45,983 nucleotides of DNA from an uncultured bacterium (GCA_913050645.1 CAJXAG010000001.1:1-45983), one strand, 5' to 3'. Counted from the stretch's first letter, positions 6,996 through 39,956 are shown. Translations and numbers: made by a program. Notes: a model not told the origin generated them from the sequence alone.

Positions 6996-7100
6996 GTGTA
7001 CTTGGCAATCGTCCGACCGTATCAAAATAAGGAGAAATATAGACGATTACGCATATATAATACCACGTTGTTACAGGACTGGCTTTTGCCGCTGTGCGTA

Positions 7101-7129
7101 TTGACTGCATGGGTCAGCTCTGGTAATAT
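7101..7129 (+). promoter_or_regulatory. sigma-70-like promoter for rpmG
   Basis: TTGACT (7101-7106), 17-nt spacer, TAATAT (7124-7129). This implies a ~100-nt leader with repeated CGAGCGAGCG and TTGAG(C)TTACAT motifs. Confidence 0.55.
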
Positions 7130-7235
7130 TGCGCCACTACAGCCAAGCGAGCGAGCGTCGTGAGCAAATTTCAAGCTTGAGTTACATACTTAATTTGAGC
7201 TTACATTTGGACATGACCGAGCGAGCGAAGGGTGT

Positions 7236-7430
7236 ATGAATAAAATTCATATGTCACAAGATCGACTCATAAAAATGGTTAGCAAGGGCGACGAAAACGG
7301 CGTTGGTAAAGGTCATGTGTACTACACAACCTACAACAACAAGAACAAGAAGGACCCGAGCAAAAAGCACGAGGAACGAAAGTTCAACCCCGTTTCAAAG
7401 ACCCACACACAGTACGTGCAGAAAAAATAG
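7236..7430 (+). CDS. rpmG: 50S ribosomal protein L33
   Basis: GHVYYTTYNNKN...RKFNPVSKTHTQYVQKK aligns with the L33 core (GHFYTTTKNKR...RKFDPVVRKH). An alternative start at ATG 7251 is possible. Promoter at 7101-7129 and terminator at 7442-7480. Confidence 0.8.
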   Translation: MNKIHMSQDRLIKMVSKGDENGVGKGHVYYTTYNNKNKKDPSKKHEERKFNPVSKTHTQYVQKK

Positions 7431-7441
7431 TTTATCTATAA

Positions 7442-7480
7442 ACAAAGACAACGGCGCCCTGTGGGCGCCGTTGTCTTTGT
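7442..7480 (+). terminator. rpmG terminator, 18-bp perfect stem
   Basis: acaaagacaacggcgccc-tgt-gggcgccgttgtctttgt. Confidence 0.65.
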
Positions 7481-7484
7481 CCAA

Positions 7485-7512
7485 AAAACCTTTCATTCGA
7501 ATGAAAGGTTTT
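7485..7512. repeat. perfect palindrome AAAACCTTTCATTC|GAATGAAAGGTTTT (copy 1)
   Basis: 28-nt perfect palindrome immediately after the rpmG terminator. Confidence 0.6.
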
Positions 7513-7513
7513 A

Positions 7514-7541
7514 TTGACTTCTCTCCCCCTTTTGCTACATT
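7514..7541 (+). promoter_or_regulatory. sigma-70-like promoter for 7577..7939
   Basis: TTGACT (7514-7519), 16-nt spacer, TACATT (7536-7541). Confidence 0.5.
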
Positions 7542-7576
7542 TGCCTGTAGAAACAACCCTGAGGAGTTAGTCAACA

Positions 7577-7939
7577 ATGCATATCGCAAGAGTCTCTTCA
7601 ACGACGTTCCGCTCGAGTCGTCAGTACAGGTTTCCGTACCGAATCTGGAACAAAGAAAGCGAAGCAAAGCCGATTCAAAAGCTCTGGGAAGACGTAGATC
7701 CCTATGGAGCTGGCCCACAAAACTTTCCTGACTGCTTTCCCAAAAATGGCTTCGATGTCAAAGAGCGTATGCTGGAACTACTCGGAAGTCTAGGGATGAA
7801 ACAAGCACACATTGCACATATGGACGTAAGTGCATACATACTTGAAGCAAGAGTCCTCAATGACCAAAGTAGAAACATTGAAAATTGGGACGCTTTTGAA
7901 GCACTGCTCGAAAGAACATTCTGCCTTGAAGTTCGGTAA
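7577..7939 (+). CDS. hypothetical protein
   Basis: 120-aa ORF. GAGGAG (7561-7566) lies 10 nt upstream, a TTGACT-16-TACATT promoter sits at 7514-7541, and a hairpin terminator sits at 7943-7970. No family recognised. Confidence 0.5.
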   Translation: MHIARVSSTTFRSSRQYRFPYRIWNKESEAKPIQKLWEDVDPYGAGPQNFPDCFPKNGFDVKERMLELLGSLGMKQAHIAHMDVSAYILEARVLNDQSRNIENWDAFEALLERTFCLEVR

Positions 7940-7942
7940 TCA

Positions 7943-7970
7943 AAAACCTCGCAATCAATCGCGAGGTTTT
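7943..7970 (+). terminator. intrinsic terminator hairpin
   Basis: aaaacctcgc / gcgaggtttt, a 10-bp stem with an 8-nt loop, directly after the stop at 7939. Confidence 0.6.
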
Positions 7971-8001
7971 CTTATACCTGTACCACATTCGTCATTGCTT
8001 C

Positions 8002-8033
8002 GTCATTGCGAGGAACTTGCGACGAAGCAATCC
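8002..8033 (+). repeat. short dispersed repeat GTCATTGCGAG-N-GAAGCAATCC (copy 2, with partial duplicate 7991-8001)
   Basis: gtcattgcgaggaacttgcgacgaagcaatcc, preceded by gtcattgcttc. Confidence 0.55.
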
Positions 8034-8039
8034 AGAAAG

Positions 8040-8073
8040 CACAAAACCTTTCATTCGAATGAAAGGTTTTGTG
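8040..8073. repeat. perfect palindrome CACAAAACCTTTCATTC|GAATGAAAGGTTTTGTG (copy 2)
   Basis: 34-nt perfect palindrome sharing its 28-nt core with 7485-7512. Confidence 0.6.
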
Positions 8074-8122
8074 TGTAACTAATTTCCTCAAATTACTATG
8101 AAATGCAAAGTAGCAATTGTGC

Positions 8123-8334
8123 AATAGAAGCGATTTGCTTGAGTGCAGTTCTAAGCGTAAAAAATAACGTAAAGCGTACTGATACGTACTGTGTGAGACA
8201 GTGTCTAAACACTGTCGCAGGACTCATTGAGATATTTTGAGGGACGAGAAATATCCAATGAGTGGACAACTTCTGTAAGAAGCGTTATTTTCTGCATTAC
8301 AACAAAGAAATGTGCCTAGAAAATCGCTTCTATT
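8123..8334 (-). repeat. gene-3'-end structured element, expanded copy (after fba)
   Basis: An outer 14-bp perfect helix pairs 8123-8136 with 8321-8334 and includes the fba TAG. The S1-like helix pairs aaaaataacg (8160-8169) with cgttatttt (8283-8291) and encloses three extra hairpins. A CAACAAAG motif lies at 8300-8307. Confidence 0.45.
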
Positions 8335-9355
8335 CCATACTCGGGTCATAAGTCCCCTGATCCGCCATACTATTGAGTTGCAATCGCTTGATAAGTGCCG
8401 CTTGTGCTGCCTCTATATTCTCATCTTTTCCTTGCCATGCTTCCTGCACCGGTTGCTCAAGCCCTCGTGAGAATGAAAACGCTAACTCCCATGGAAATCC
8501 ACCTTCCTGTGCCTCAAGCTCTGCAATCGCGTCTAAGTTCTCTGTCGCTCTCTGTGGTGTCTGTCCTCCTGAAAGAAAGACGATACCAGGAACTTCTGGG
8601 GGTACACTATTCATAAAGGTACGTAGTGTTGCCTGTGCAACGTCTGCAGCAGACGTCTGCTCACTCCACTCACTTCCTGCAAGCACCATACTCGACTTCA
8701 GAATCACCCCTTCCAGGTCAACGTTGTTCCACTGCAGCTGCTCAAATAGTTTCTGCAGCACCATAGTTGTCACCTCTTCAGCGCGCTCTAATGAATGACT
8801 ACCGCTGAAAAGGACTTCTGGCTCTACCATTGGCACAATCCCTGCTTCCTGACAAAGCGCTGCGTAACGCGCGAGTGTCATACAGTCAAAGAGAATATTT
8901 TGCTCAGTCGGCGTATTTTCTGAAATGGTAAACACAGCACGCCACTTTGCTGCTCGCGCACCCATGTCGTAATACTCTTGCAAACGATCAGCAAGACCAT
9001 CGAGCCCTTGGGTTACCACCTCACCTTCAAAGTTCGTGTGTGGGACTGTACTCTTGTCCACCTTAATGATTGGCACAACACCTTTAGCGATGAGCAGGTC
9101 AGAAAACTCGGTACCGTCGTCGGCATGGTTACGAATCGTGCCATCATGAAGAATAACTCCAGTGACATACTCTTGGAGACCTTCAGTGGTAAATAGAAGT
9201 TGCCGGTACTTTCGCCGAAGCTCAGCCTCGGGAGGTAACCCGAGTGCTTCTAATTGCTTATTCATAGTGCGCGGCGACTGGTCGGCCGCAAGAATTCCCT
9301 TATGTGGCGTTACCAGTGTCTTCGCCATCTCTCGGAGTTGTTCTGTGTTTGACAT
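8330..9355 (-). CDS. fba: fructose-bisphosphate aldolase, class I
   Basis: GILAADQSPRTMNKQL and overall similarity to class I (Schiff-base) aldolases. I prefer the start at MSNTEQ (9355) because the longer ORF (to 9382) would run into the 9370-9402 hairpin. Confidence 0.88.
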   Translation of the reverse strand: MSNTEQLREMAKTLVTPHKGILAADQSPRTMNKQLEALGLPPEAELRRKYRQLLFTTEGLQEYVTGVILHDGTIRNHADDGTEFSDLLIAKGVVPIIKVDKSTVPHTNFEGEVVTQGLDGLADRLQEYYDMGARAAKWRAVFTISENTPTEQNILFDCMTLARYAALCQEAGIVPMVEPEVLFSGSHSLERAEEVTTMVLQKLFEQLQWNNVDLEGVILKSSMVLAGSEWSEQTSAADVAQATLRTFMNSVPPEVPGIVFLSGGQTPQRATENLDAIAELEAQEGGFPWELAFSFSRGLEQPVQEAWQGKDENIEAAQAALIKRLQLNSMADQGTYDPSME

Positions 9356-9444: not shown

Positions 9445-9469
9445 ACAGGGGACATCCGATGTCCCCTGT
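9445..9469 (-). terminator. hairpin, ACAGGGGACAT stem family (copy 1)
   Basis: acaggggacat-ccg-atgtcccctgt. The same 11-bp stem recurs at 38491-38515. Confidence 0.55.
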
Positions 9470-11872: not shown

Positions 11873-12766
11873 ATGGACGAAGAAGAAAAGTGGTTGCTGG
11901 AGGAGAAATACAGTGGCACGGAAAGCTTCGCTTTCCGTGCAGATTTAGAACTGCTCAAAAACGGCACTCCTCTCGCCTACCTCATTGGATCAATCCCCTT
12001 TTTAGACTGCACCATTCACCTCGACTCACACCCACTGATCCCACGTTCTGAAACCGAATTCTGGACCGAGCAAGCTATCAAGGTCATTCGAAATTTCGAG
12101 CGTACGTACGAACGTACGTACGACCATAACTCCCCCCAAGGCAGCCCTAGGGAACTCCCCGGACAAAACCCGAGGCCCGGCCTAGGGCTGGCCCTAGGCC
12201 GGGCCTCGGGAGAAGTTCATGTCCTGGATCTGTGTGCGGGCTCAGGAGCAATCGGTGTCGCCGTCGCCAAAGCGATCCCACAAGCACAGGTCGATTTTGC
12301 AGAAATTGACCCAGCTCACCTCCCTACCATCGAAAAAAACATCGAACACAACCTCAAACCGACATGTCGGAGGTCTAACCTCCAACATGGGCAATGTCGT
12401 GTGATTGAAAGCAATCTCTTTACGCCGAGTGCAGGGTTAAACCGCGAACTTGGGAAATATGACTTTATTCTCACTAACCCGCCCTATATTGATCCTGCAA
12501 TCGACCGTACTGAAACTTCCGTAAAGCTGCACGAGCCACACCTTGCGCTGTATGGCGGAGCTGAAGGTATGGAATGTATTGCAAAAATCATAGCAGAAGC
12601 ACCGAAACATCTCACGTTACATGGTCAACTCTGGATCGAACACGAACCTGAGCAGGTAGATGCAATTACTGCTCTTGCTGCAGAAAATGATTTGTTTAGC
12701 ACGACTCACAACGACCAGTACAACACACCTCGCTATAGTGTTGTAACGCGCACTGTGGCAGAATAA
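11873..12766 (+). CDS. prmC: release factor glutamine N5-methyltransferase PrmC (HemK) with ~35-aa palindrome-encoded insertion
   Basis: SAM motif VLDLCAGSGAIG and catalytic LTNPPYI. The segment FERTYERTYDHNSPQGSPRELPGQNPRPGLGLALGRASGE lies where E. coli PrmC has only about 6 residues. Confidence 0.85.
   Translation: MDEEEKWLLEEKYSGTESFAFRADLELLKNGTPLAYLIGSIPFLDCTIHLDSHPLIPRSETEFWTEQAIKVIRNFERTYERTYDHNSPQGSPRELPGQNPRPGLGLALGRASGEVHVLDLCAGSGAIGVAVAKAIPQAQVDFAEIDPAHLPTIEKNIEHNLKPTCRRSNLQHGQCRVIESNLFTPSAGLNRELGKYDFILTNPPYIDPAIDRTETSVKLHEPHLALYGGAEGMECIAKIIAEAPKHLTLHGQLWIEHEPEQVDAITALAAENDLFSTTHNDQYNTPRYSVVTRTVAE
12101..12122. repeat. intragenic palindrome CGTACGTACG-AA-CGTACGTACG (in prmC)
   Basis: Self-complementary 22-mer, read in frame as RTYERTY. 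Confidence 0.8.
12169..12210. repeat. intragenic GC-rich 42-nt perfect palindrome (in prmC)
   Basis: cccgaggcccggcctagggc-tg-gccctaggccgggcctcggg, read in frame as PRPGLGLALGRASG. Its composition is far more GC-rich than the surrounding gene. Confidence 0.8.
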
Positions 12767-25144: not shown

Positions 25145-25170
25145 AATTTAGTCCCCTACATTGTACCAAA

Positions 25171-25209
25171 TACAAAAGCACGGAAAGCGAAGCTTTCCGT
25201 GCTTTTGTA
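25171..25209 (-). terminator. 18-bp hairpin, ACAAAAGCACGG stem family (copy 1), end of dnaG-rpoD unit
   Basis: tacaaaagcacggaaagc-gaa-gctttccgtgcttttgta. Confidence 0.6.
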
Positions 25210-25229
25210 TAAAACTCAATCTTCCTTTA

Positions 25230-29147: not shown

Positions 29148-29543
29148 ATGACTGCTGTTGTTCTCTTGAAACCCAAAAACCACACCCTGTTCGAACCAGG
29201 TGATACGCTCATCTACTATCACAAATGGAAGCTTTGGGAAAAACCAAAGAATCAAAAGTGGTTTCACAATCTCAGTCTTGAGGAATGTGAGCAGCTCGCC
29301 CCCGGTGACCAAGTATGGATTGATGTTGATCCTTTGTACCACAACGGTAAAGTGTACGGTTGCATTCTGGTAACCATCACAAGCATTTCCAGAACGGCTC
29401 AAGACACACTTAGTGTCGGCTACAGCTCACCATCAATCAGTGGCCGTTCACTGATCACTTACAAAGGTAAGCTTGCTGTTCTTACCAACGAAGAGCAGGT
29501 ATACAACTGGACAAAAGATGTAGACGCTGCACGCAATGTGTAA
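29148..29543 (+). CDS. hypothetical small protein (cassette 2)
   Basis: 131-aa ORF with AAGGAGG at 29135-29141 and its own terminator at 29557-29580. No family recognised. Confidence 0.55.
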   Translation: MTAVVLLKPKNHTLFEPGDTLIYYHKWKLWEKPKNQKWFHNLSLEECEQLAPGDQVWIDVDPLYHNGKVYGCILVTITSISRTAQDTLSVGYSSPSISGRSLITYKGKLAVLTNEEQVYNWTKDVDAARNV

Positions 29544-29556
29544 CATCACATCCCCT

Positions 29557-29580
29557 AAACCCCGCAGCCATGCGGGGTTT
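29557..29580 (+). terminator. AAACCCCGC...GCGGGGTTT terminator family (copy 2)
   Basis: aaaccccgca-gcca-tgcggggttt followed by gtttttta. Confidence 0.7.
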
Positions 29581-29643
29581 GTTTTTTATTTGTCACTATG
29601 ATACGTTTGACACAAACGCACATTTCTAAAAAGGAGAAATACC

Positions 29644-29877
29644 ATGCTTTCATGCATACTCATCGCTGGCTCACTGTGGATTGAACAAACCCCTGATTCC
29701 GGGTATTACCTAAACATCAACACCTTCACAGGTATCGGGCGTACAGAAGAAAGTGCTGATATCCATTTCACAAAAGACGGAATTGCATCCTACCCTGTCA
29801 CACTGCCCGAGCAGCTCCAGGACGCATCTATACCTGAAATTCTTGCAGCCTGCGAAGCCGTTGCCCGAGAACAGTAA
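29644..29877 (+). CDS. hypothetical small protein (cassette 3)
   Basis: 77-aa ORF with AAGGAG at 29631-29636 and its own terminator at 29885-29909. No family recognised. Confidence 0.5.
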   Translation: MLSCILIAGSLWIEQTPDSGYYLNINTFTGIGRTEESADIHFTKDGIASYPVTLPEQLQDASIPEILAACEAVAREQ

Positions 29878-29884
29878 TAACCCA

Positions 29885-29909
29885 AAACCCCGCACAGTCT
29901 GCGGGGCTT
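29885..29909 (+). terminator. AAACCCCGC...GCGGGGTTT terminator family (copy 3)
   Basis: ccccgca-cagtc-tgcgggg with flanking aa/tt, followed by gtttttta. Confidence 0.6.
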
Positions 29910-29926
29910 GTTTTTTACATGAAAAA

Positions 29927-29962
29927 AATACCACAATTAATTACGTAATTAATTGTGGTATT
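29927..29962. repeat. 36-nt perfect palindrome
   Basis: aataccacaattaattac|gtaattaattgtggtatt. Confidence 0.7.
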
Positions 29963-29988
29963 AATTTTGAAATTCTTTCAAATGAAGC

Positions 29989-30110
29989 CCCCACGAGCTT
30001 ACACTCGGGGTATCTCACCAAGTTACGTAGCTTGCTACGTAACACCTATCGCTATCACGATAGGCAAACTCCCTCCATCCCCGGGCTTACGCCGCGGGGT
30101 ATTTGTGGGG
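29989..30110 (+). other. GC-rich multi-hairpin element (candidate structured RNA or palindromic mobile remnant)
   Basis: A closing helix pairs ccccac (29989-29994) with gtgggg (30105-30110). It encloses perfect hairpins at 30022-30043 (9 bp) and 30045-30064 (7 bp) and a GC hairpin at 30079-30099. Strand is not determined. Confidence 0.4.
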
Positions 30111-30133
30111 AATAAACACCTTACGATTTTTTT

Positions 30134-30159
30134 AATTAGTTCAATATATCGAACTAATT
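30134..30159. repeat. 9-bp hairpin
   Basis: aattagttc-aatatatc-gaactaatt. Confidence 0.5.
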
Positions 30160-30180
30160 TAAGTGTATCGCCTGAGTTTA

Positions 30181-30214
30181 AATACCCATTTAAATTGCAA
30201 TTTAAATGGGTATT
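30181..30214. repeat. 34-nt perfect palindrome
   Basis: aatacccatttaaattg|caatttaaatgggtatt. Confidence 0.7.
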
Positions 30215-30243
30215 CAATCGGGTTATTAATCGCTAGATTTTGC

Positions 30244-30287
30244 AAACACAAAAGCACGGCGCCTAAAGGCGCCGTGCTTTTGTGTTT
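30244..30287 (-). terminator. 20-bp hairpin, ACAAAAGCACGG stem family (copy 2), end of rpoBC unit
   Basis: aaacacaaaagcacggcgcc-taaa-ggcgccgtgcttttgtgttt. Confidence 0.6.
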
Positions 30288-30313
30288 TACTTCTATCCTC
30301 GTCTTTCTCTCTT

Positions 30314-30426
30314 AGAAACTGAATAAGTTGCCTGAGATACGAAACAGACAAGAAAAAAGACCCGAGCGGTACTAAGGTGTACCGTGAGGGTCTTTTTTCG
30401 TAGTCTAATGAAGTAGATTAGGTGAA

Positions 30427-30439
<13 letters not shown>
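30314..30439 (-). repeat. gene-3'-end structured element (after rpoC)
   Basis: gaaacagacaag-aaaaaagaccc-gag-[cggtac/gtaccg]-tga-gggtctttttt-cgtagtctaatgaagtag. The outer 13-bp perfect helix pairs 30314-30326 with 30427-30439 and includes the rpoC TAA. Confidence 0.65.
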
Positions 30440-34113
<3,674 letters not shown>

Positions 34114-34129
34114 ACATTATTGAGGACTA

Positions 34130-37100
34130 TTAATATTCTTCTCGTTTAAGATCAACATCCAGCGACAGACCACGAAGCTGATTTACAAGCACGTTAAACG
34201 CTGCTGGTGTATGCGGGTGGCTGATTCGTTCACCACGTACAATCGCGTCAAATGCTGCAGATCGACCAACGATATCGTCAGACTTGATAGTGAGCATTTC
34301 TCGTAGCGTATATGCCGCGCCGTATCCAAGAAGTGCCCACACTTCCATTTCTCCGAATCGCTGTCCACCAATCTGTGCCTTACCACCAAGCGGCTGCTGT
34401 GTAATAAGACTGTATGGACCAATAGATCGCATGTGGATCTTGTCCTCCACCATGTGGTGCAGTTTCAAGATGTACATGAGACCAACGGCTGTTCGTTGTT
34501 CAAACGCTTCACCCGTTCGTCCGTCGCGTAGTTGTAGCTTTCCGTCTTCTGGAATGTCTGCTTCTTTCAATTCTGCTTTAATCTCTTCTTCAGTTGCTGA
34601 AGCAAATGGAGGCACGATCGCTTGATAGCCAAGTGTGTGTGCGGCCATACCTAAGTGCAACTCAAGAATCTGTCCAAGGTTCATACGTGACGGCACACCA
34701 AGTGGCGTCAAAATGATGTCCACTGGAGTTCCGTCTTCTGTATACGGCATGTCTTCTTCAGGAAGAATTCGTGAGATCACACCCTTGTTACCGTGACGTC
34801 CCGCAAGCTTGTCACCTACTGATACGTTTCGTACCTGGGCTACTGTGATAAGAATCTTCTTGATTACACCGCTGTCGAGATTATCTCCATTTTCACGTGA
34901 GAAGATTTTCACACCGATAACTCGTCCACGCTTTCCAGCCTCAAGTCGCAGTGACGTATCTTTTACGTCCTTTGCCTTTTCACCAAAGATAGAACGAAGC
35001 AGTCGCTCTTCAGGTGTAAGTTGTGCTTCACCCTTGGGTGTTACTTTACCAACCAGAATATCTCCGGGTCGCACTTCAGCACCAACACGGATGATTCCGT
35101 TTTCATCAAGGTTTCGCAGCTTCAGCTCTGAAACGTTCGGGATGTCTGGAGTTGTTACTTCAGGTCCAAGCTTCGTGTCTCGTACAGATACATCAAGCTC
35201 ATCAAGGTGAATGGTTGCAAACTTACTCTTCTTCACTAGTCGCTCAGAAATAATAATCGCATCCTCGTAGTTCGCGCCGCTCCAACTCATAAATGCTACC
35301 ATTGCGTTTTGCCCTACTGCGATTTGTCCTTGGTCAGTTGAAGTTGTGTCAGCAAGCAAGTCCCCGCGCTTTACCTTGTCGCCAACTGTCACTGCTGGCC
35401 GGTGGTAGAATGCTGAAAAGTCGTTTGTTCGCTGGATAGTTGTCAGTGGATATTCATCCTTCTTACCATCCTTTTTCTTGATTACAATGATGTTTGCATC
35501 ACACTCAACTACTTCTCCAGCTTCAACTGCAGTAACAACACGACCCGTGTCGCGTGCGGCCATACCTTCGATACCTGTTCCCACGATCGGAGCTTCAGGA
35601 ATAACACACGGTGTAGCCTGCTTTTGCATGTTTGAACCCATAAGCGTTCGGTTCGCGTCATCATGGTTTAAGAATGGAATCATTGACGTCGCAACTGAGA
35701 ATCCTTGGTTTGTTGCAATATCCATGTAGTCAACTTCCTTCGGCGCAACCACTCGTGGCTCACCATTTCGTCGCACTTCCACGAAGTCAGCTTTGATTTT
35801 TCCGTTGTCAGCAACTTCTACCGCTGCATGTGCAATCGCAAAATTTTCTTCTTCATGTGCATTGAGGTATACGATCTCACCGGTAAGTGTTCCTTTTTCT
35901 ACCTTTACGTATGGCGTTTCGATGATACCAAACCGGTTCACACGCGCATACATAGACAGACGAAGAATCAAACCAATATTCGGTCCTTCTGGAGTATGAA
36001 TCGGACACAGTCGTCCATAGTGAGATGTATGTACGTCACGCACTTCAAAACCAGCACGTTCACGTGTAAGTCCTCCAGGACCAAGCGCTGAGAGTGTTCG
36101 GAGTCCTTCAAGCTCTCCAAGAATGTTCTGCTGTGGCATGAACTGTGAAAGCTGGTTGGTAGTGAAAAATTCTTTAATCGCCGCCTGAAGTGGTCGTGGA
36201 TTAAGAATTTGCATTGGGAGTGAGGTTTCAGCTTCAATAGTCGACATTCGATCTTGAATGTTTCGCTTCATGCGGGTCATACCCACACGTACACGCTGGA
36301 TACACATTTCGCCGAAGTATCGCACACGTCGGAACCCGAGGTGGTCAATATCGTCCGGAAGTGCTCCTGGTTCGTGATTCTTCTCGATGATTGTCTTTAG
36401 AATAAGACGGACATCTTCAAGTGATACCGTTCGCTCGTCGGTTGCTTTCTTGTCGATTGGTCGGTCAAATCGCTGATTGAAGTGGTGTCGTCCAATTTCT
36501 GAAAGGTCGTATCGTTCAGGCGCAAAGATAGAGTTCACAAACTCCTTTGCGTTGTCTACGGTTGCAAGATCACCATCACGAAGCCGTTTGTAGATTTCTA
36601 CATATGCGTCATCAGTGGTCTTCGCTGGGTCCTTGGCGATTGTTGCCTTCATGTACTCCTCCCCACGTTCAACGTCAGAGAAAAGCTTGATCATGTCTTC
36701 CTCTTTTTCAAGACCAAACACGCGAAGCAATGACGATACCGGCACTTTCTTCTTTCGATCAATCTTGATATAGATTACGCCATCTGCTTCAGACTCGATC
36801 TCCACCCATGCACCACGTGCAGGAATGATTTTTGCACCAAAACAAGTTTTTCCCTTAAGCTCCTGTGCAGTAAAGAAGATGCCGTAGCTTCGCGCGAGCT
36901 GTGGAACAATCACACGCTCAACACCGTTGATGATGAACGTTCCGTGTTCAGTCATTACAGGGATGTCCGCAAGGAAAATTTCCTGATCCTTATCAGAATC
37001 AAATGTCTTGTTTTTAAGTACTACCGTTGCCCGCAGTGGTGCATCGTACGTAAGTTTGTTTGCTTTTGCGTACTCAGGGGTACATTTTGGCTGACCCACT

Positions 37101-37327
37101 TCATACTTTTTAAACTTCATCTCAAACTTCTTTTCGGAGTAATCAGTGATTGGTGAAAATTCTTTGAAGATATCCTTCAAACCTTCTTCAACAAACCACT
37201 TGTACGATAGACGTTGTGGCTCAATCAAGTCGGGAAGATCCACCAGTGGATCTTTCGCCAGCTTGAATGTCTTCTGTGGCATAGCGCCCACTGAAGCGTA
37301 GTCTTCTGCTTTTGGATTTGTATACAT
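34130..37327 (-). CDS. rpoB: DNA-directed RNA polymerase subunit beta
   Basis: 1065 aa. RFGEMEVWAL and GRHGNKGV blocks. It lies 16 nt upstream of rpoC. Confidence 0.98.
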   Translation of the reverse strand: MYTNPKAEDYASVGAMPQKTFKLAKDPLVDLPDLIEPQRLSYKWFVEEGLKDIFKEFSPITDYSEKKFEMKFKKYEVGQPKCTPEYAKANKLTYDAPLRATVVLKNKTFDSDKDQEIFLADIPVMTEHGTFIINGVERVIVPQLARSYGIFFTAQELKGKTCFGAKIIPARGAWVEIESEADGVIYIKIDRKKKVPVSSLLRVFGLEKEEDMIKLFSDVERGEEYMKATIAKDPAKTTDDAYVEIYKRLRDGDLATVDNAKEFVNSIFAPERYDLSEIGRHHFNQRFDRPIDKKATDERTVSLEDVRLILKTIIEKNHEPGALPDDIDHLGFRRVRYFGEMCIQRVRVGMTRMKRNIQDRMSTIEAETSLPMQILNPRPLQAAIKEFFTTNQLSQFMPQQNILGELEGLRTLSALGPGGLTRERAGFEVRDVHTSHYGRLCPIHTPEGPNIGLILRLSMYARVNRFGIIETPYVKVEKGTLTGEIVYLNAHEEENFAIAHAAVEVADNGKIKADFVEVRRNGEPRVVAPKEVDYMDIATNQGFSVATSMIPFLNHDDANRTLMGSNMQKQATPCVIPEAPIVGTGIEGMAARDTGRVVTAVEAGEVVECDANIIVIKKKDGKKDEYPLTTIQRTNDFSAFYHRPAVTVGDKVKRGDLLADTTSTDQGQIAVGQNAMVAFMSWSGANYEDAIIISERLVKKSKFATIHLDELDVSVRDTKLGPEVTTPDIPNVSELKLRNLDENGIIRVGAEVRPGDILVGKVTPKGEAQLTPEERLLRSIFGEKAKDVKDTSLRLEAGKRGRVIGVKIFSRENGDNLDSGVIKKILITVAQVRNVSVGDKLAGRHGNKGVISRILPEEDMPYTEDGTPVDIILTPLGVPSRMNLGQILELHLGMAAHTLGYQAIVPPFASATEEEIKAELKEADIPEDGKLQLRDGRTGEAFEQRTAVGLMYILKLHHMVEDKIHMRSIGPYSLITQQPLGGKAQIGGQRFGEMEVWALLGYGAAYTLREMLTIKSDDIVGRSAAFDAIVRGERISHPHTPAAFNVLVNQLRGLSLDVDLKREEY

Positions 37328-38490: not shown

Positions 38491-38515
38491 ACAGGGGACA
38501 TTGAATGTCCCCTGT
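38491..38515. terminator. hairpin, ACAGGGGACAT stem family (copy 2), between convergent genes
   Basis: acaggggacat-tga-atgtcccctgt. The stem is identical to 9445-9469. Confidence 0.55.
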
Positions 38516-38517
38516 TT

Positions 38518-39240
38518 CTATTTTTTCTTAGCTCGGTATTTTTCGATCTCTTTATGGTGTCCTGATAGGAACACTTTAGGTACTTTGTATTTTTTATCTT
38601 TAAACTTTATTTCATCTGGTCGTGTATACATCTCCCCCGAGCTGACTCGTTCATCTTCAAGCGATTCAAATGTTCCGAGTACTCCAGGTACCTGTCGCGA
38701 AGTTGCATCGATAATCGATAGTGCTGGTAGTTCACCACCAGTCAGGACATAATCGCCTACGCTCACCTCCTCTGCGTTGAGTGCTTTTTTGACACGGTAA
38801 TCAATCCCTTCGTAGCGTCCTGAGATAAGTACGATGTGGTCGTACGTACGTGCGTACGTACGTGCAAGCTTGTTGGTAAATTCAGTTCCTCGTGGAGACA
38901 TAATCAACGTCTTCACCTTTCGTTTATTATGCTTGCGCCCCACTGCCTTTTGCCACGCCTTTAGAATTGGCCCCGCCGCCATCACCATACCTGGCCCACC
39001 TCCATACGGCTTATCATCCACTTTCTTGTGTTTATTGGTAGCAAAATCTCGTGGGTTATAGTAGCTGATGTCGATTTTCTTCCCGCGAACCTTTGCCCCT
39101 TTCCCCTTCTTTGTCTTCTGTGCACGACCCAAAACACTTGCGTCGGTGTACGCTTTGCAAACTTCTGGGAATAAAGTTATTACGTGAAAATGCATCCCAT
39201 TAGTTTTGGTTGCTTTGTTTTTACTTTCTACCTTTTTCAT
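38518..39240 (-). CDS. trmD: tRNA (guanine37-N1)-methyltransferase TrmD
   Basis: PYGGGPGMVM, GRYEGIDYRV and LTGGELPAL motifs. The start is at 39240 or 39195. It carries an RTYARTYDH segment encoded by a CGTACG-based palindrome. Confidence 0.9.
   Translation of the reverse strand: MKKVESKNKATKTNGMHFHVITLFPEVCKAYTDASVLGRAQKTKKGKGAKVRGKKIDISYYNPRDFATNKHKKVDDKPYGGGPGMVMAAGPILKAWQKAVGRKHNKRKVKTLIMSPRGTEFTNKLARTYARTYDHIVLISGRYEGIDYRVKKALNAEEVSVGDYVLTGGELPALSIIDATSRQVPGVLGTFESLEDERVSSGEMYTRPDEIKFKDKKYKVPKVFLSGHHKEIEKYRAKKK
38841..38862. repeat. intragenic palindrome CGTACGTACG-NN-CGTACGTACG (in trmD)
   Basis: The plus strand reads cgtacgtacgtgcgtacgtacg. On the coding strand it is read as RTYARTY followed by DH, as in prmC. 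Confidence 0.8.
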
Positions 39241-39770: not shown

Positions 39771-39814
39771 AGCTCCCCAAAACCTTCCAATCGATTGGAA
39801 GGTTTTGGGGAGCT
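39771..39814. repeat. 44-nt perfect palindrome upstream of the NUDIX gene
   Basis: agctccccaaaaccttccaatc|gattggaaggttttggggagct, with 22 + 22 nt arms and no loop. Confidence 0.7.
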
Positions 39815-39932: not shown

Positions 39933-39956
39933 AACCTTTCTTTCGAAAGACAGGTT
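39933..39956. repeat. degenerate copy of the AACCTTTC.TTCGAA.GAAAGGTT palindrome
   Basis: aacctttctttcgaaagacaggtt, with one arm mismatch and the same TTCGAA centre. Confidence 0.35.

Follow-up and report, generated by a model that had tools for sequence, protein, structure and literature searches.

An in-frame palindromic segment in a Patescibacteria prmC gene resembles REP-type repeat units

The stretch of DNA analysed here, referred to as the window, comprises 45,983 nucleotides from an uncultured bacterium (GCA_913050645.1, CAJXAG010000001.1:1-45983), a Patescibacterium whose named relatives belong to Kaiserbacteria, Parcubacteria and the 'Patescibacteria group'. Its prmC (hemK) gene, encoding the release-factor methyltransferase, contains an extra segment in which a GC-rich perfect palindrome of 42 nt is translated as part of the protein. 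With moderate confidence, we hold that this segment is a cluster of units resembling repetitive extragenic palindromic (REP) elements, and that it has settled in frame in a disordered linker of the enzyme. We regard the element as akin to REPs and to REP doublets forming hairpins (REPINs), and not to the Rickettsia palindromic elements (RPEs), because its unit and doublet architecture also flanks single-copy Y1 transposase genes in five other Patescibacteria genomes. Related loci are cited below by their numbers (L001 and so on).

The initial annotation had noted an insertion of about 105 nt in this gene. An extra segment is indeed present, but compared with the shortest orthologues it amounts to approximately 40 residues (12095–12214). 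At the equivalent place, E. coli HemK has about 5–6 residues, in line with the figure of about six that had been quoted. In the AF2 model, residues 74–115 form a coil with a predicted local distance difference test (pLDDT) score of 42–55 (10-residue means of 55, 52, and 42), located between helix 59–73 and strand 116–119, where it connects the N-terminal domain to the methyltransferase fold. The predicted structure thus agrees with the surface-loop location that had been proposed for the insertion. The host gene and the parts of the segment are as follows.

11873–12766, + strand: prmC/hemK open reading frame (ORF) of 297 aa, the host gene, assigned from profile matches, motifs and predicted fold
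12095–12214, + strand: extra segment relative to the shortest orthologues, aa 75–114, about 40 residues, from alignments
12101–12126, + strand: palindrome CGTACGTACG-aa-CGTACGTACG (12101–12122) with flank GACCA, peptide RTYERTYDH
12128–12152, + strand: AACTCCCC, then REP-like unit 0 (CCCCAAGGCAGCCCTAGGG), which is degenerate and repeats the left arm in direct orientation
12153–12168, + strand: second AACTCCCC with spacer GGACAAAA, a direct repeat
12169–12188, + strand: REP-like unit 1, left arm, CCCGAGG-CCCGG-CCTAGGGC
12191–12210, − strand: REP-like unit 2, the right arm, which repeats unit 1 in inverted orientation

The GC-rich palindrome at 12169–12210 is a perfect inverted repeat of 20 nt with a 2-nt spacer, positioned in frame (CCCGAGGCCCGGCCTAGGGC-tg-, 20/20 paired). 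Its arms have a GC content of 0.85 compared with about 0.45 for the window, and the marked GC enrichment noted earlier is therefore real; the coordinates and sequences of both palindromes (12101–12122 and 12169–12210), their reading frame, and the quoted peptide likewise proved exact. As DNA, the 42-mer is predicted to form a hairpin of −28.4 kcal/mol (z = −8.0 relative to shuffles), and the region 12098–12215 folded as RNA gives z = −7.4. The repeating unit, C[CG]AGG-N4-5-CCTAGG(G), measures 17–20 nt and occurs in three copies across 12134–12210. The third copy is a decayed unit at 12134–12152, which matches the unit pattern at 12137–12151, is 73% complementary to the right arm, and is preceded by the same AACTCCCC as unit 1. 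On the basis of their sequences, units 1 and 2 are an inverted doublet, that is, a REPIN-like perfect palindrome of 42 nt. Directly 3' of the palindrome, positions 12211–12220 read AGAAGTTCAT without a T-run, and the ORF continues through the hairpin, past AGAAGTTCATG.

Relatives of this palindrome were sought in one genome per species (185,579 species) with a pattern fixing 25 palindrome bases, for which we estimate about 1e-3 chance matches. Three loci were found: the prmC gene of L001, and two intergenic loci on different contigs of one Saccharibacteria metagenome-assembled genome (MAG), which has two single units in addition. One of the intergenic copies (L084) lies between convergent genes and is followed by TTTTATT. 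The other (L085) lies upstream of an ORF, 28 nt away, that has a match to PF01797 (Y1_Tnp) at 6.2e-10, and whose sole NCBIfam match is NF047646, REP-associated tyrosine transposase (RAYT), at 48 bits against a cut-off of 80. Hairpins of the form CCTAGG-A[CT]CGG-CCTAGG occur on both sides of this Y1 ORF, and each arm in the window (CCGAGG-CCCGG-CCTAGG) is therefore itself one such unit, and the palindrome an inverted doublet. The context of the L085 gene is identical in eight independent assemblies, as are the flanking palindromes. The suggestion that the GC palindrome belongs to a wider family has accordingly been borne out, with members outside prmC and beside a transposase-like gene.

Homologues of the Y1 gene number in the thousands in Patescibacteria, and the gene occupies a conserved slot, FtsK ... 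PG_binding - Y1 - LCAT ... DUF1360 - L10 - L7/L12. Five genomes provide the comparison with the prmC element through their Y1_Tnp (RAYT-like) genes.

L085, 5790–6603: Y1_Tnp (RAYT-like) gene
L088, 9941–10736: Y1_Tnp (RAYT-like) gene
L097, 5865–6709: Y1_Tnp (RAYT-like) gene
L098, 5913–6727: Y1_Tnp (RAYT-like) gene
L099, 5800–6711: Y1_Tnp (RAYT-like) gene

The gene is single-copy and flanked by genome-specific inverted doublets in all five. Their units follow the consensus C[AG][AG]AGG-N4-5-CC[CT]T[AT][CG]G, and CAAAGGACCGGCCTAGGCAA-c-TTGCCTAGGCCGGTCCTTTG is an example of a flanking doublet among L088, L097, L098, and L099. The doublets in prmC and those flanking Y1 have the same geometry, with arms of 17–23 nt and a spacer of 0–6 nt. 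In L041, a Y1 homologue is found 1.7 kb from prmC, together with the unit CCCCTAGG-accga-CCTAGGGG, and a Nomurabacteria genome has two doublets within 20 kb. Judged from sequence and gene context, the Y1 slot with its flanking doublets looks like an undescribed REPIN-RAYT-type system of Patescibacteria. A REP-like unit was also noted within another housekeeping gene, the TruB pseudouridine synthase gene of L008 (1183–1199, GCCTAGGCAAGGCCTAGGC), where it is in frame and encodes SPRQGLGY.

If the prmC element belongs to such a system, the doublet in single-stranded form would fold into a 20-bp hairpin, which a RAYT-like HUH tyrosine transposase could recognise and copy or move. Templated copying from arm to arm may then hold the arms strictly Watson-Crick, and the element would be neutral, or nearly so, for the PrmC protein.

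At the same codon position, palindromes are present in two relatives, L002 (CCGAGGTCCAACCTAGGGC-ct-, 19/19 paired) and L001 (CCCGAGGTCCGACCTAGGGA-gc-, 19/20 paired). Paired positions differ between the window, L001, and L002 on both arms, i.e., by compensatory changes, and the pairing is conserved while the encoded peptide is not. The possibility raised at the outset, that the extra segment is a conserved, non-palindromic domain of this PrmC lineage, is contradicted by this pattern. A comparison of L002 with L086 provides the only pair that differs in presence of the palindrome. The two are 99.5–99.7% identical over the rest of prmC and 1.5 kb of flanks, and differ in a mosaic patch of about 200 nt centred on the palindrome (21/34 and 46/55 identities, and a 42-nt indel). 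Presence or absence of the palindrome therefore travels by homologous recombination between prmC alleles, and no clean footprint of insertion or excision is visible in this pair. In the prmC linker of the closest relative, L087, the sequence ACAAAGGAAGACCCTTCGC (760–800) resembles by eye a single unit of the L097 type (ACAAAGGACCGTCCTTCGT).

The second palindrome of the segment, at 12101–12122, has perfect arms of 10 nt and is likewise in frame. It has a counterpart elsewhere in the window.

38841–38862, − strand: twin CGTACGTACG-tg-CGTACGTACG in trmD, peptide ARTYARTYDH

Positions 12097–12126 in prmC and 38837–38866(−) in trmD match at 26 of 30 nt including GACCA, in the same frame (RTYxRTYDH). 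Compared with H. influenzae TrmD, the twin brings no extra length; where the clade has the conserved repeat LAKKYAKKYDH, the TrmD of the window reads LARTYARTYDH. The 22-mer is absent from the nearest relative of PrmC and from that of TrmD. The idea of one element of about 105 nt, comprising the 22-mer and the GC palindrome, is at odds with this twin, and the notion of selfish palindromic DNA in a surface loop stands for the GC palindrome and fails for the 22-mer. The 22-mer is a separate short patch shared with trmD, whose spread is probably due to templated copying of a short stretch and not to a mobile unit inserting itself; parallel formation of palindromes in prmC and trmD is an alternative origin.

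Both prmC palindromes belong to a broader pattern, in which perfect palindromes accumulate in the prmC genes of Patescibacteria. Among 43 unique Patescibacteria prmC genes, there are 57 perfect hairpins with a stem of at least 8, where codon shuffles give 4.4, and 43 with a stem of at least 11 bp, where shuffles give 0.14. The density of the latter is 1.34 per kb in prmC (46 genes, three of them duplicates), compared with, on the same contigs, 1.36 per kb between genes and 0.053 per kb in the remaining coding sequence, i.e., prmC has about 25 times the density of neighbouring coding sequence. At least one hairpin is present in 36 of the 46 prmC genes, and no perfect hairpin with a stem of at least 9 was found in 11 prmC genes from outside the candidate phyla radiation (CPR). 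The hairpins recur at aa 15–24 (site 1), at RLAxGEPL (site 2), in the linker (site 3), at VDFxEID (site 4), and as a pair flanking strand β4. Three further hairpins in the window gene had escaped the initial annotation.

11916–11940, + strand: site-1 coding hairpin GCACGGAAAGC-ttc-GCTTTCCGTGC, aa 15–23, GTESFAFRA, conserved across Patescibacteria prmC
12289–12311, + strand: site-4 imperfect hairpin over VDFAEID, GGTCGATTT...AAATTGACC, with one G.T
12363–12389, + strand: hairpin CATGT-c-GGAGGT-cta-ACCTCC-a-ACATG in the second variable loop, aa 164–173, z = −3.9

At site 1, 89.7% of the cells in an alignment of 35 sequences are paired, compared with about 50% when the partners are slid; 8 of the 13 pairs have changed on both sides, and none of 500 shuffles reaches the observed covariation. 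The co-varying residues are those with complementary codons (T/R, V/H, K/F, V/Y, and Q/L). Relatives have perfect stems of 14–19 nt at site 4, and the GAGGT[TC]TAACCTC family of the third hairpin is found also in the prmC gene of L047; relatives have this hairpin in paired copies on the two sides of β4. The two hairpins that flank β4 are identical within a genome and differ between genomes. At synonymous third positions, Watson-Crick pairs are in excess with z = 11, 4.6, and 5.0, values that are inflated since the sequences are related. G.U pairs at synonymous sites occur at 0.75 of expectation, as against 0.68–0.76 for other mismatches. G.U is thus tolerated no better than a mismatch, which indicates maintenance at the DNA level or by templating. 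For site 3, a hairpin common to all genes was considered and rejected, as folding there exceeds that of shuffles in only 17 of 43 genes; such patchiness is better explained by sporadic gain than by a structure that every gene needs.

Identity to the closest relative is 67% for PrmC, compared with 73–95% for its neighbours in the block (on the same contigs, bPH2 78%, HisS 87%, and exonuclease 95%) and 88% for TrmD. By this measure PrmC evolves fastest in its syntenic block, and can therefore be considered permissive. Permissiveness alone can hardly be behind the 25-fold excess and the hairpins in well-folded segments.

Several observations weigh against the reading of the prmC segment as a REP-like cluster. 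No Y1 gene is present in the 46-kb window, which has one unit-bearing locus, and no other copy of the GC arm was found there within three mismatches. The Y1 proteins score below the NCBIfam RAYT cut-off (48 vs 80 bits). Copy number appears low in the genomes sampled, with 2–4 copies per 8–20 kb near Y1 and none elsewhere in the flanks. The tetranucleotide tag GTAG/CGTC does not adjoin the units in the window, L001, L002, L098, or L088, and a tag-like end is seen in the upstream unit of L085 only (..CCTAGGTAGAG). Neither a target-site duplication nor a clean empty site was seen, the sole presence/absence pair being a recombination mosaic. The trmD twin demonstrates that a palindrome can arise without net insertion, random insertion into a tolerant loop leaves the 25-fold enrichment in prmC unexplained, and the conserved hairpins in the well-folded segments (sites 1, 2, and 4) are not accounted for by such insertion either.

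A bolder interpretation, for which the odds seem to us distinctly unfavourable, is that the prmC genes of Patescibacteria are specifically kept as carriers of palindromes, strictly Watson-Crick and located at no fewer than five recurrent codon positions, where they would dictate amino-acid covariation by codon complementarity. If true, this would imply a function at the nucleic-acid level tied to the release-factor methyltransferase gene, or an undescribed REPIN-RAYT-like system anchored in, or targeting, prmC. In another explanation, which we consider improbable, the hairpins are a functional feature of prmC itself, selected DNA or mRNA structures through which the gene is regulated, for instance by pausing or attenuating transcription, by mRNA decay, or by pausing ribosomes, and 12169–12210 would be one interchangeable solution among them. 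The 43 long hairpins in 43 genes, the contrast in density with other coding sequence, the 36 hairpin-bearing genes out of 46, the lack of hairpins in the 11 non-CPR genes, the fixed codon positions with their covariation, and the third-position excess are all expected from such a feature. It is difficult to reconcile with the patchy site 3, with G.U pairs that are not favoured, which argues against a constraint on RNA, and with identical hairpin sequences at unrelated intergenic loci and in other genes; moreover, we know of no mechanism that links hairpins to prmC. Somewhat less probable again is that there is no mobile element, and that palindromes arise and stay perfect in place through template-switch errors and short-patch ectopic gene conversion, such that near-palindromes imposed by the protein (R..GEP, VDFxEID) are extended where the protein tolerates it. 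Strict Watson-Crick complementarity would follow naturally, as would the length-neutral palindromes in trmD and in the minimal-length linkers of L004, L006, L031, L044, and L045, the arms of L044 and L045 that co-vary, indels included, the concerted evolution of two hairpin copies per gene (SSRxxLEL twice per protein), and the 26/30-nt patch common to prmC and trmD. What such a process does not predict is a palindrome family of 40 nt that recurs between genes in a different class and flanks Y1 in five of five genomes, and it does not account for the 25-fold lower hairpin content of other genes in these genomes.

Two further explanations carry very little weight. A lineage-specific functional loop, selected at the protein level and encoded by DNA that is palindromic by chance, is in keeping with the long and diverse inserts that many relatives have at the linker. 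Nevertheless, we judge it highly improbable, given that protein constraint does not yield a perfect inverted repeat (20/20, z = −8), that the pairing is conserved and the peptide is not, that the AF2 model shows a disordered coil, and that close relatives lack the palindrome. An assembly or library artefact appears more improbable still, even though palindromes that are perfect and have tiny loops can result from fold-back chimeras. Four contigs, from NCBI, JGI, Logan, and ENA, encode exactly this 297-aa protein, the frame is kept, and independent assemblies of relatives from other samples carry related palindromes at the same codon, so that misassembly is unlikely; the palindromes flanking Y1 are identical in eight assemblies.

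Identification of the host gene rests on several profiles and on the predicted fold. The protein encoded at 11873–12766 matches TIGR00536 (hemK_fam) with 136.7 bits, above the cut-off of 115.5, and contains the MTS domain PF05175 and the motifs TNPPY and LDLCAGSG. TIGR03534 (RF_mod_PrmC) matches in two stretches (9.5e-48), and its 162.8 bits fall short of the 199.1-bit cut-off because the insert divides the match. E. coli HemK (2b3t/1t43) is matched by the clade profile at 2.2e-27, while a phmmer search of the PDB with the single PrmC sequence gave no match at 1e-10. The AF2 model (mean pLDDT 82.5) has 2b3t_A, the PrmC chain of the E. coli PrmC-RF1 complex, as its closest structure and top Foldseek match (E = 1.4e-15). 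By sequence and model, the ORF is thus a genuine prmC/hemK with the characteristics of a class I S-adenosylmethionine methyltransferase.

Hairpins related to those in prmC are present at other loci as well, including in the window.

25170–25210, no strand assigned: intergenic terminator-like hairpin, ATACAAAAGCACGGAAAGC-gaa-GCTTTCCGTGCTTTTGTAT

The 25-nt core of this hairpin (25178–25202) is identical, as reverse complement, to the site-1 hairpin of prmC (codons 15–23). Similarly, the 15-nt sequence GGACATC[CG]GATGTCC is found in the prmC linkers of L044, L059 (where it is repeated in tandem), and L061, within a gene for an FAD-oxidase in L044, and between genes both in the window and in L005. 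At 9445–9469 and 38491–38515, there are terminator-like hairpins whose core is GGACAT[CT]-N-[GA]ATGTCC. A further family of palindromes in the window has no loop (AAAACCTT[TC]C....G[AG]AAGGTTTT; 7485–7512, 8043–8070, 39771–39814, and 39933–39956), the first two being identical over 28 nt with a small ORF between them. In L014 (8780–8807) and L015 (8303–8330), the palindrome CAGCGGACGGCCT(G) lies within coding sequence at the same codons of an RNase_H_2/PolB-exonuclease-like gene.

The linker aactccccgg had been taken as a hint of kinship between the GC palindrome and two GC-rich hairpins at 45–69 and 30067–30099. This link could not be upheld, as ACTCCCCGG, allowing up to one mismatch, is found 6 times where 4.1 would be expected, a count reached by 17 of 100 shuffles, and the two hairpins are copies of a different structured element. 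That element is present twice (15–85 and 30015–30115), consists of two to three hairpins (z = −4.6 and −5.6), ends in CCCCGGG..GCC-G-CGGGG-[CT]ATTTG[T]GGGG, has no Rfam match, and is unrelated to the prmC palindrome. Its second copy lies inside a hairpin-rich non-coding stretch of 870 nt beside the two largest ORFs of the window (30427–34113 and 34130–37327, − strand), putatively rpoC and rpoB from size and order alone. Rfam 15 gave no family match at gathering score in the whole window; at an E-value threshold, the regions around 1–650, 7000–8350, and 29500–30450 gave sub-threshold matches at chance level only, and ARAGORN reported no tRNA or tmRNA in the window.

Rickettsia and some Proteobacteria rich in REPs are known to have palindromic repeats in frame within housekeeping genes, with none described in the CPR. 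Our data point to a REPIN/RAYT-like system in tiny, gene-dense genomes, with a transposase-like gene in a conserved chromosomal slot. They also make prmC a natural test case for the shaping of protein sequence by selfish repeats or by constraints at the DNA level, and give annotators a concrete reason why Patescibacteria PrmC falls below curated family cut-offs. In the literature, we found no description of in-frame palindromes in CPR or prmC, nor of RAYT in Patescibacteria.

With respect to known systems, quasi-palindrome correction by template switching creates perfect inverted repeats in one step, keeps the arms identical, and requires no change in length. The trmD twin agrees with such a process, as do sites 1, 2, and 4 in prmC. 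Unlike the family described here, however, it is locus-specific, and spreads no sequence to unrelated loci or to positions beside a transposase gene. The extragenic members (L084, 25170–25210, and 9445–9469) resemble bidirectional intrinsic terminators in having an A-tract, a GC stem, and a T-tract, whereas the prmC copies have no T-run and lie inside an ORF that reads through. An intrinsic terminator was for this reason dismissed at the prmC palindrome. A miniature inverted-repeat transposable element was also rejected, as no direct repeat flanks 12169–12210 and there is no clean empty site, the palindrome-free allele differing over about 200 nt.

As for RPEs, these are multicopy Rickettsia elements of about 150 bp with a family-specific conserved peptide (PMC10969869), and one of them interrupts the tRNA pseudouridine synthase B gene of R. 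conorii (PMC3733652). The prmC element is similar in being an in-frame palindromic repeat in a housekeeping gene with a tolerated extra surface peptide, and the TruB unit of L008 offers a parallel. It differs from the CGTC-tagged RPEs of Rickettsia in host, in length (REP-size units that form a doublet of 42 nt and, counting the third unit, span about 85 nt), and in lacking a conserved peptide, which sets it apart from RPEs as described (PMC10969869). The kinship with RPEs initially proposed is not supported on these three counts.

The closest counterpart is the REP/REPIN-RAYT pattern (PMC3116915, PMC3733652), with some differences. REPs have a conserved GTAG (or CGTC) tetranucleotide at one end (PMC3733652), whereas the Patescibacteria units have no such tag, their arms are perfect and not imperfect, and their copy number is seemingly low. 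Patescibacteria are not among the phyla listed for REPs (PMC3733652), the Y1 proteins fall below the RAYT cut-off, and nothing comparable to the strong concentration in a single gene, prmC, has been described. In both systems, a short palindromic unit of REP size (about 20–40 nt for REPs) forms inverted doublets that fold into one long hairpin, and a single-copy, vertically inherited Y1 HUH gene, found here in other Patescibacteria genomes, is flanked by the units. Genome-specific subfamilies and terminator-like extragenic copies are common to the two, as are occasional in-frame intragenic copies and small clusters that reiterate some flanking DNA. Intragenic REPs are documented in other phyla, among them clusters that encode 43–82 aa and, separately, recurrent insertions at the same site in orthologues (PMC3733652).

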